A stretch of DNA of 64,000 bases from Schmidtea polychroa (Eukaryota): positions 130,634,001 to 130,698,000 of the forward strand of contig CM097885.1 in the NCBI GenBank assembly GCA_044892525.1. The letters are read 5' to 3'. This document shows positions 36,028-37,176 of the stretch, piece by piece; position 1 is the stretch's first letter; each line of letters begins with the position of its first letter. Made by a program: the position numbers and the translations under genes. The notes under the pieces were generated by a model. That model saw only the letters and a list, made by a program, of their open reading frames with translations, was not told the origin of the DNA and ran no database searches.

Positions 36028-37176
36028 TTATTTAATCAATTGATTTTCAGATATCCAAGATGGAGTTTCATATCCATGCCATTTAACATAGTATTGTTTA
36101 TATTTACCATCTTTTTTGGTTTTTAAAATCTTTTGAATTCTAAATATTGTAGGAGCAGGAATTACTTGGAGTTCTTGTTCATAGAATTTACCAGTGATTG
36201 GTTTGTTTTCATGATCAACTATCACATACATGACAGGATTCTGTTTTGTATCGATTTTAAAAATTTGATATACTTCATCACTCCAATTATTATCAAAGTT
36301 TTTGATGAATGGTGAAGAATTGATTTTACTAATTCTTACATGATCACCAACCTTGTATTTCGGTTTATTGATTTTTTCTGACTTTGTTTGATTTTTAGTA
36401 AAATCTGCAGGTGTTTGTCCTTTTAATCCTCTGTGTGGTGAATGATTGTAACTGAAAATAATTTTTGGCAAAACATTTATCCAAGTTTTATTACCTTGAT
36501 ATACAAAATATTTTTTCAAGCGTTCTCTTAAAGTTCGATTAAATCGTTCTACGTGAGCAGCTTTGAACTGAGAAAATACCGAGTAATGGTTTATTCCTTT
36601 GATAACCTCTTTAACTTTGCTGTTATAAAATTCTTTACCTAAATCATATATTTAAAAATTAATTAATTAAATTTAATTACCTAAATCCGTTTGTAAATTA
36701 ATAGGTTTACCATCTGCAAACATTTCTTTTATCGCATCAGCCATTTCATTTGCAGATTTAGTTTTTGTAGGAACAGCACGAGCATATCTATTAAAAACAT
36801 CTATACAAGTCAGAATATATTTGTACCCCTTGTTAATTTTTGAATAAGGTATCATTTCCATCAAATCCATTTGCCATACATCATTGTTTCCAATTGTTTT
36901 GTATGGTCTTGTTGGAAAACGTTTCAACATTGGTTTATTTAAACTATATGCTAATTGATTAGATAACCATTTCTGAGTTTCTTTCTTTGAATTATTCACT
37001 CGTTTTGTTAATTTTTCTACGCCACCAAAACCATCTGGATCTTTTGGGTTTGTCCATATGGTTTTTAACTTTTTCTCTATTGTTTTCACTTTTTTCACTT
37101 TTGTTTTCACATTTGTTTTCACTTTTGTTTTCATTTTTTCCACTTTTGTGTTGGTTTTGTGATACGTTTCCTTCAT
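36028..37176 (-). CDS. int: RVE (retroviral-like) integrase with C-terminal chromodomain-like region, spliced (exons 37176-36681, 36638-36028), 368 aa
   Basis: A 42-nt GT-AG intron restores WQMDLM (D)..QTDLG|KEFYN (D)..AAHVERFNRTLRE (E); then KYKVGDHVRISK and YYVKWHGY. The spliced length is divisible by 3. Confidence 0.92.

Follow-up and report, generated by a model that had tools for sequence, protein, structure and literature searches.

The integrase gene of a Polinton/Maverick-type element in Schmidtea polychroa is split within its active site by a 42 nt insert that, judging from its own sequence and that of its relatives, is very likely a spliceosomal intron. Our overall account, which we hold with moderate confidence, is that the insert is an ordinary, old intron removed by host splicing, that the 11-bp repeat at its two junctions is mostly a by-product, and that introns were gained twice at one proto-splice site. 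The window analyzed here is a stretch of 64,000 nt (contig CM097885.1, forward-strand positions 130,634,001 to 130,698,000), and all coordinates are positions within it.

An insert within the integrase active site

The insert occupies 36639..36680 on the minus strand (36680 -> 36639 in reading direction), where it lies in phase 1 with GT..AG ends, a 93% A+T content and three in-frame stops, and splits the TDLG|KEF motif of the Polinton/Maverick integrase. Exon 1 (36681..37176, minus strand) encodes the rve core as far as the second Asp (Pfam rve, E = 1.3e-08), and exon 2 (36028..36638, minus strand) encodes the remaining core with its Glu and a chromodomain-like C-terminal end, for which the rve_3 and Chromo matches are weak and fall under the curated cut-offs. 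The Asp codon of TDLG is located at 36687-36685, and the intron begins 4 nt past this codon. In an alignment to solved retroviral integrase cores, with the homolog P0001 as the query, the same Asp falls on their SDQG/TDNG Asp, and we take it to be the second catalytic Asp of DDE. If the mRNA were left unspliced, the reading frame would end immediately as TDLGN*.

The 11-mer GATTTAGGTAA has two minus-strand sites in the window and no other. The first (36677..36687) covers the exon 1/intron junction, combining the Asp-Leu-G codons with the donor GTAA, and the second (36635..36645) covers the intron/exon 2 junction, combining the acceptor with Gly-Lys codon letters; the spacing between the two copies is 42 nt. 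A direct check of the sequence thereby bears out what the first-pass annotation of this DNA had observed, namely the 11-mer at both junctions, the insert's location inside TDLGKEF and the stop after TDLGN. Shuffled windows contained a mean of 0.17 matches to the 11-mer, and two matches were found in 0 of 100 shuffles; a dinucleotide shuffle is, however, the wrong null for this pair, most of whose letters follow from the splice signals and from the D-L-G-K codons.

The xDxGxE[FY] motif is uninterrupted in all 120 protein homologs listed (145 were found), 77 of which read TDLGKEF, but this set is biased to uninterrupted genes and a search with exon 1 alone is the fairer test. Metagenome relatives retrieved with exon 1 alone were uninterrupted in 33 of 33 cases examined, the other five of the 38 loci falling short of the motif. 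Within the host genome, there are 122 uninterrupted motif matches, distributed over at least four families.

Evidence for splicing

A motif search of the genome identified 882 inserts of 29-59 nt at the same site, of which 862 have GT..AG ends. Their interiors vary widely and include the window type, the 40-, 41-, 43- and 45-nt types, and ATT repeats of 30-66 nt; the 40-, 41- and 43-nt lengths would each shift the frame if retained. Exon 2 sits behind the stops or the frameshift of the insert, yet it remains under purifying selection between intron-bearing families. In particular, dN/dS between two such families is 0.09 for exon 1 and 0.14 for exon 2, and an intron-less pair yields 0.12 for exon 2. 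The retention of GT..AG ends despite varied interiors, together with selection on the downstream exon, makes a spliceosomal intron very likely, and the first-pass annotation was in all likelihood right to call one. The host spliceosome would remove the intron constitutively, restoring the TDLGKEF active-site loop.

Alternatively, the insert could be unspliced, leaving its copies dead for integration and moved by intron-less helpers. Intron-less families do co-occur in the genome, but both exons have been under purifying selection since the intron-bearing families split, and the GT..AG ends were retained while the interior turned over, which renders this alternative most improbable.

The window's family was amplified recently with the intron already present: all 30 sampled loci are at least 98.7% identical, and 15 of the 30, the window included, are 100% identical over 1149 nt. 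The exact 42-nt intron occurs in 215 copies in the genome, and 213 of them have the same integrase flanks. An introner identity for the insert was considered and rejected on these flanks, within a search of exact copies.

The element's adenain-type protease gene (31964..32342, minus strand; Peptidase_C5, E = 1.4e-05) also has two exons. Its intron (32298..32337, minus strand) is 40 nt long with GT..AG ends, lies directly after the start codon and has no flanking repeat; across the genome, a protease-gene intron of 36-41 nt is present in 16 of the 16 element copies with a protease match. Candidate host introns, taken from myosin, have lengths of 45-58 nt, compared to mostly 36-45 nt for the slightly shorter Polinton introns; these host candidates are 17 introns that were hand-picked by eye from 78 noisy rows.

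Age of the intron

The insert had been described at first pass as a snapshot of intron gain. The divergence among its relatives places it instead as an old intron within the Polinton lineage, because about half of the silent sites have diverged between intron-bearing sister families. In particular, the silent-site distance is ~0.9 between the intron-bearing copies L003 (the window's family) and L069 (the 43-nt family), and the intron is common to families that are ~80% identical in DNA. The intron bodies of L003 and L069 align no better than shuffles (z = 1.0). Moreover, the exact repeat is confined to one young subfamily, which likewise contradicts the snapshot description.

Of the intron-less families examined, those nearest have 76-80% identity, and no near-identical intron-less allele was present among the 40 candidates scored and the first 100 of the 122 uninterrupted matches. 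The first-pass annotation had suggested looking for an intron-less ortholog with one 11-mer, and such a family exists (the L050 type).

Origin of the 11-bp repeat

Splice signals and codon use are likely to account for most of the 11-bp repeat. Codons set its letters GAT TTA G and GT AAA, while GTAA and TTAG are common forms of the donor and the acceptor. When 14 protease introns were placed between the integrase flanks, they produced repeats of 7-10 bp, with 10 bp for the window element's own protease intron. The 17 hand-picked host introns, placed in the same way, produced repeats of 4-9 bp, and the maximum over all 78 noisy rows was 9. Among 23 distinct intron/flank types at the integrase site, the exact repeat has a length of 2-12 bp and is at least 11 bp long in three, and the earlier-branching lineages have exact repeats of only 4-6 bp. 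Further, the exact 11-mer pair has 238 matches in the genome, compared to 862 same-site GT..AG inserts, and all of the matches listed belong to the window's recently amplified subclade.

The first-pass annotation viewed the repeat differently, as a target-site duplication preserved from an intron gain that was recent and came about by duplication or break repair. Several observations are in line with that view. In 238 copies the repeat is perfect, and its 11 bp exceed the repeat of every one of the 31 control introns (range 4-10, maximum 10). All through clade A (the intron-bearing clade that includes the window), a near-repeat, ATTT(A/G)G|GTA(A), is retained; most members have ATTTAG at the intron end, and a target-site relic would explain the retention of ATTTAG too. 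The intron-less L050-type family carries a single 11-mer, and newly gained Daphnia introns are bordered by repeats of 4-12 bp (PMC4202315). However, the intron is older than the split of families differing at about half of their silent sites, and the two letters that perfect the repeat are missing from both earlier-branching lineages of clade A, whose exon 1 ends in GATTTGG and which lack the G that stands seven letters ahead of the end of the intron, as placed by the clade tree. In Drosophila, moreover, flanking repeats are equally common at old and gained introns, with repeats of at least 5 bp at 26% of the former and 25% of the latter (PMC3443670). As a whole, the view is unlikely to be correct. 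Its 'recent' part is refuted, unless the 42-nt family acquired its intron separately, in a third gain of recent date; an old intron may nevertheless carry a relic of duplication or staggered-break repair.

Under our preferred account, where the repeat is mostly a by-product, the properties of the site itself would be responsible. In an A+T-rich genome, the D-L-G-K codons would spell (A/G)G|GTAAAG, which would act as a ready-made donor context, and short A+T-rich insertions ending in TTAG would be tolerated there as introns. With such a donor context in place, the site would be an intron hot spot, and the junctions of its introns would resemble each other. The proto-splice site proposed in the first-pass annotation is indeed visible, as uninterrupted relatives read TTAG|GTAAAG or TTGG|GTAAAG. 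The physical inserting event, either staggered-break repair or a small duplication, would no longer be legible in the sequence. A caution for other systems is that, where an AG|GT site lies in an A+T-rich genome, a repeat at the junctions says little for a recent gain.

One intron gain or two

The intron-bearing copies belong to two well-supported clades: clade A, with the window and the 41-45 nt types, and clade B, with the 40-nt and ATT types. One clade A copy (L190) has a shorter, 34-nt intron. Integrase DNA trees were calculated from all 95 distinct rows and then from 24 rows, after dropping long-branch, badly broken and redundant ones. A single intron clade was rejected by the integrase DNA tree (p-AU = 0.003, 24 rows), by the capsid DNA tree (p-AU = 0.008, 18 rows) and by the integrase protein tree with outgroups (p-AU = 0.023, 27 rows); it was not rejected by the ATPase tree (p-AU = 0.13), whose alignment is short at 340 columns.

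The protein trees were built without frameshifted copies, and the 40-, 41- and 45-nt types are therefore absent from them. When rooted, these trees join clade A to the intron-less L035/L050 (support values of 98/97 and 95/94) and clade B to the intron-less L102 (95/93 and 89/86). The intron's immediate flanks (30 nt on either side), together with an indel close by, also place clade A nearer to the intron-less L035/L050 than to clade B. Resolution is weak at the deep nodes among families, and which intron-less families come out as sisters depends on the gene.

Two gains at one site are the simplest reading of these sequences, and we place their probability slightly above the midpoint; a single gain would have to be followed by three or more precise losses, which makes four or more events compared to two. 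A more specific proposition, which we regard as evenly balanced, is that two co-resident Polinton lineages gained introns at the identical integrase nucleotide because the D-L-G-K codons spell a proto-splice site. Parallel intron gains at one site have been documented in Daphnia (43 of 90; PMC4202315).

A weaker but credible possibility is that the intron was gained only once, long ago, when the host's Polintons began to radiate, and was then lost precisely in at least three or four lineages, for example via recombination with reverse-transcribed mRNA; such a history would leave an identical distribution of introns. The position and phase of the intron are identical in clades A and B, the early-branching introns of both clades begin with GTAAAAT (L069 and L093), and the ATPase tree is compatible with a single clade. 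In addition, intron bodies are saturated even inside a clade, so that aligning them is unable to separate one origin from two, and loss is reported to have prevailed in CACTA transposases (PMC4158355). Beyond the larger number of events that it needs, this history is disfavored by the protease intron, which was lost in none of the 16 copies, though its start-codon position makes its loss harder. It is also disfavored by the outside relatives P0001 and P0002, which are uninterrupted and are placed, with weak support, among or beside these families.

After a single gain, the intron might also have passed from one co-resident family to another by recombination or gene conversion. The families share one genome, and at least one copy (L188) has a mosaic appearance, but the 30-nt flanks and the nearby indel join clade A to L035/L050 and not to clade B, so the conversion tract would have been very short or long erased. 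Such a transfer is highly doubtful, and two gains are retained as the preferred reading. L188 itself has the 40-nt intron type together with a protease start region that is nearly that of the ATT family, and looks recombinant.

A looser motif search was also inspected for a third intron-bearing lineage, and its 18 matches supplied no clear candidate. Three of them are clade A variants, another three (L200, L201 and L214) match none of the element's proteins, and the remaining 12 appear to be the repeats to which L201 and L214 belong. No relative was found in the viral contigs searched.

Splicing as a proposed regulatory switch

It had also been suggested at first pass that splicing could turn integration on and off. 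In such a regulated switch, intron retention would leave a dead integrase in some tissues, while splicing would turn integration on. Splicing control of the P-element transposase provides a precedent. In all families, a retained intron would inactivate the enzyme at its active site, but the same is true of any active-site intron. Several multi-copy families with open frames, among them sisters of the intron-bearing families, carry no intron (122 uninterrupted motif matches). Moreover, the retained product is not conserved and varies by family, being an immediate stop, a frameshift or, in the (ATT)n families, a stop-free poly-Ile insert, and the intron bodies show no conserved element. The suggestion finds no support in these comparisons, and a regulated switch is distinctly unlikely.

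The ATT families of clade B (L062, L063 and L111) have introns of 30-66 nt that are stop-free and a multiple of three in length, and their retention would add a poly-Ile run to the integrase.

Relation to known elements and introns

The core genes of vertebrate (PMC8097293) and nematode (bioRxiv 10.1101/2022.07.12.499685) Mavericks are described as intronless, unlike the present element, where both the integrase and the protease bear short GT..AG introns. Surveys count large inserts in Polinton core genes as decay (PMC8097293), and lineages with short integrase and protease introns would be mistaken for dead copies. Intron-bearing Polinton lineages must undergo nuclear transcription and host splicing.

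Similarities to several other systems can be drawn. New introns of Daphnia pulex (PMC4202315) are likewise short A+T-rich inserts, some with 4-12 bp repeats and with frequent parallel gains; they are, however, young alleles of host genes, whereas the Polinton intron is old, resides in a mobile, virus-like element and is parallel between families. Ginger1 DNA transposons (PMC2836005) have Gypsy-like integrase genes that are split by one to four mostly GT-AG introns, but they are cut-and-paste elements without polymerase or capsid genes, and the likeness drawn here concerns the presence of introns. Maverick-polinton-like elements of dinoflagellates (PMC11957031) also contain spliceosomal introns; those introners are mobile and found at many unrelated sites, in contrast to the shared integrase flanks of 213 of the 215 exact copies here.

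In the literature searched, no report of a spliceosomal intron in an animal Polinton integrase was found, although Repbase, the original descriptions of 2006-2007 and supplements may annotate some. Word searches of PMC8502044, bioRxiv 10.1101/2023.08.22.554363, PMC12220804 and PMC6431247 returned nothing on such an intron. If two lineages did gain an intron at the same site, the case would bear on whether parallel gain or ancestry lies behind shared intron positions. The hundreds of datable copies would then be a natural replicate experiment on intron birth sites and on the turnover of intron bodies, one of which is now a pure ATT repeat.

The element and its surroundings

The element extends over ~23404-40695 (17.3 kb) in an A+T-rich genome of 781 Mb. 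It is of the Polinton/Maverick type by its gene content and ends, which comprise a protein-primed DNA polymerase B (pPolB), an rve integrase, a packaging ATPase, a protease, capsid look-alikes and long terminal inverted repeats (TIRs). This composition resembles that of animal Polintons/Mavericks (adintoviruses), with their pPolB, rve integrase, A32 ATPase, adenain protease, capsid-like genes and long TIRs.

The pPolB gene (24889..28816, minus strand) matches DNA_pol_B_2 (PF03175) with E = 1.8e-31, and its frame is broken at a poly-A run at ~28055-28065 (minus strand) in the window copy. Acidic repeats occur in tandem in its upstream part (28440-28780), which also holds a small Cys/His ORF (28794-29126). 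The packaging ATPase is of the A32 type (37774..38397, minus strand; Pox_A32, E = 6.6e-07), and a small basic ORF resembles a core protein (37246..37572, minus strand; Adeno_PX, E = 2.7e-06).

The putative major capsid protein (32377..33600, minus strand) is a double jelly-roll look-alike, resembling protein clusters in which 14-30% of members carry PF21738 (score 0.98), with recognition under the threshold. Two tandem minor-capsid-like ORFs (33988..36022, minus strand; 33988-35004 and 34997-36022) are a lead only. Their proteins are 47% identical and their first 180 nt are 91% identical; the other families fetched have a single ORF in this place. The element also has cargo ORFs, including a short TBP-like one at 38448-38924 (plus strand, E = 5e-16) and a RING-finger one at 30793-31875 (plus strand).

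The left TIR (23404..24880, plus strand) and the right TIR (39330..40695, minus strand), whose inner ends are approximate, are ~1.4 kb long, start with AGTAG and are 78% identical to each other. The flanks of the window copy do not match as a 6-bp target-site duplication, and the copy is not classed as an intact insertion. It is likely to be a chimera of two insertions, because its TIRs are only 78% identical and its 6-bp flanks are mismatched.

A run of N at 22772-23358 stops ~45 nt short of the left TIR. Outside the Polinton, a further inverted pair lies at ~20220-20810 and 60680-61260, 40 kb apart and 88-94% complementary. The neighbors of the element are a reverse-transcriptase ORF at 14437-17040 (minus strand), a hAT/Spin-type transposase in two ORFs at 49645-51555 (minus strand), and a long exon of the host THADA/TRM732 gene at 56335-58584 (plus strand), whose protein matches reach only 23-28%, the best of them in molluscs.
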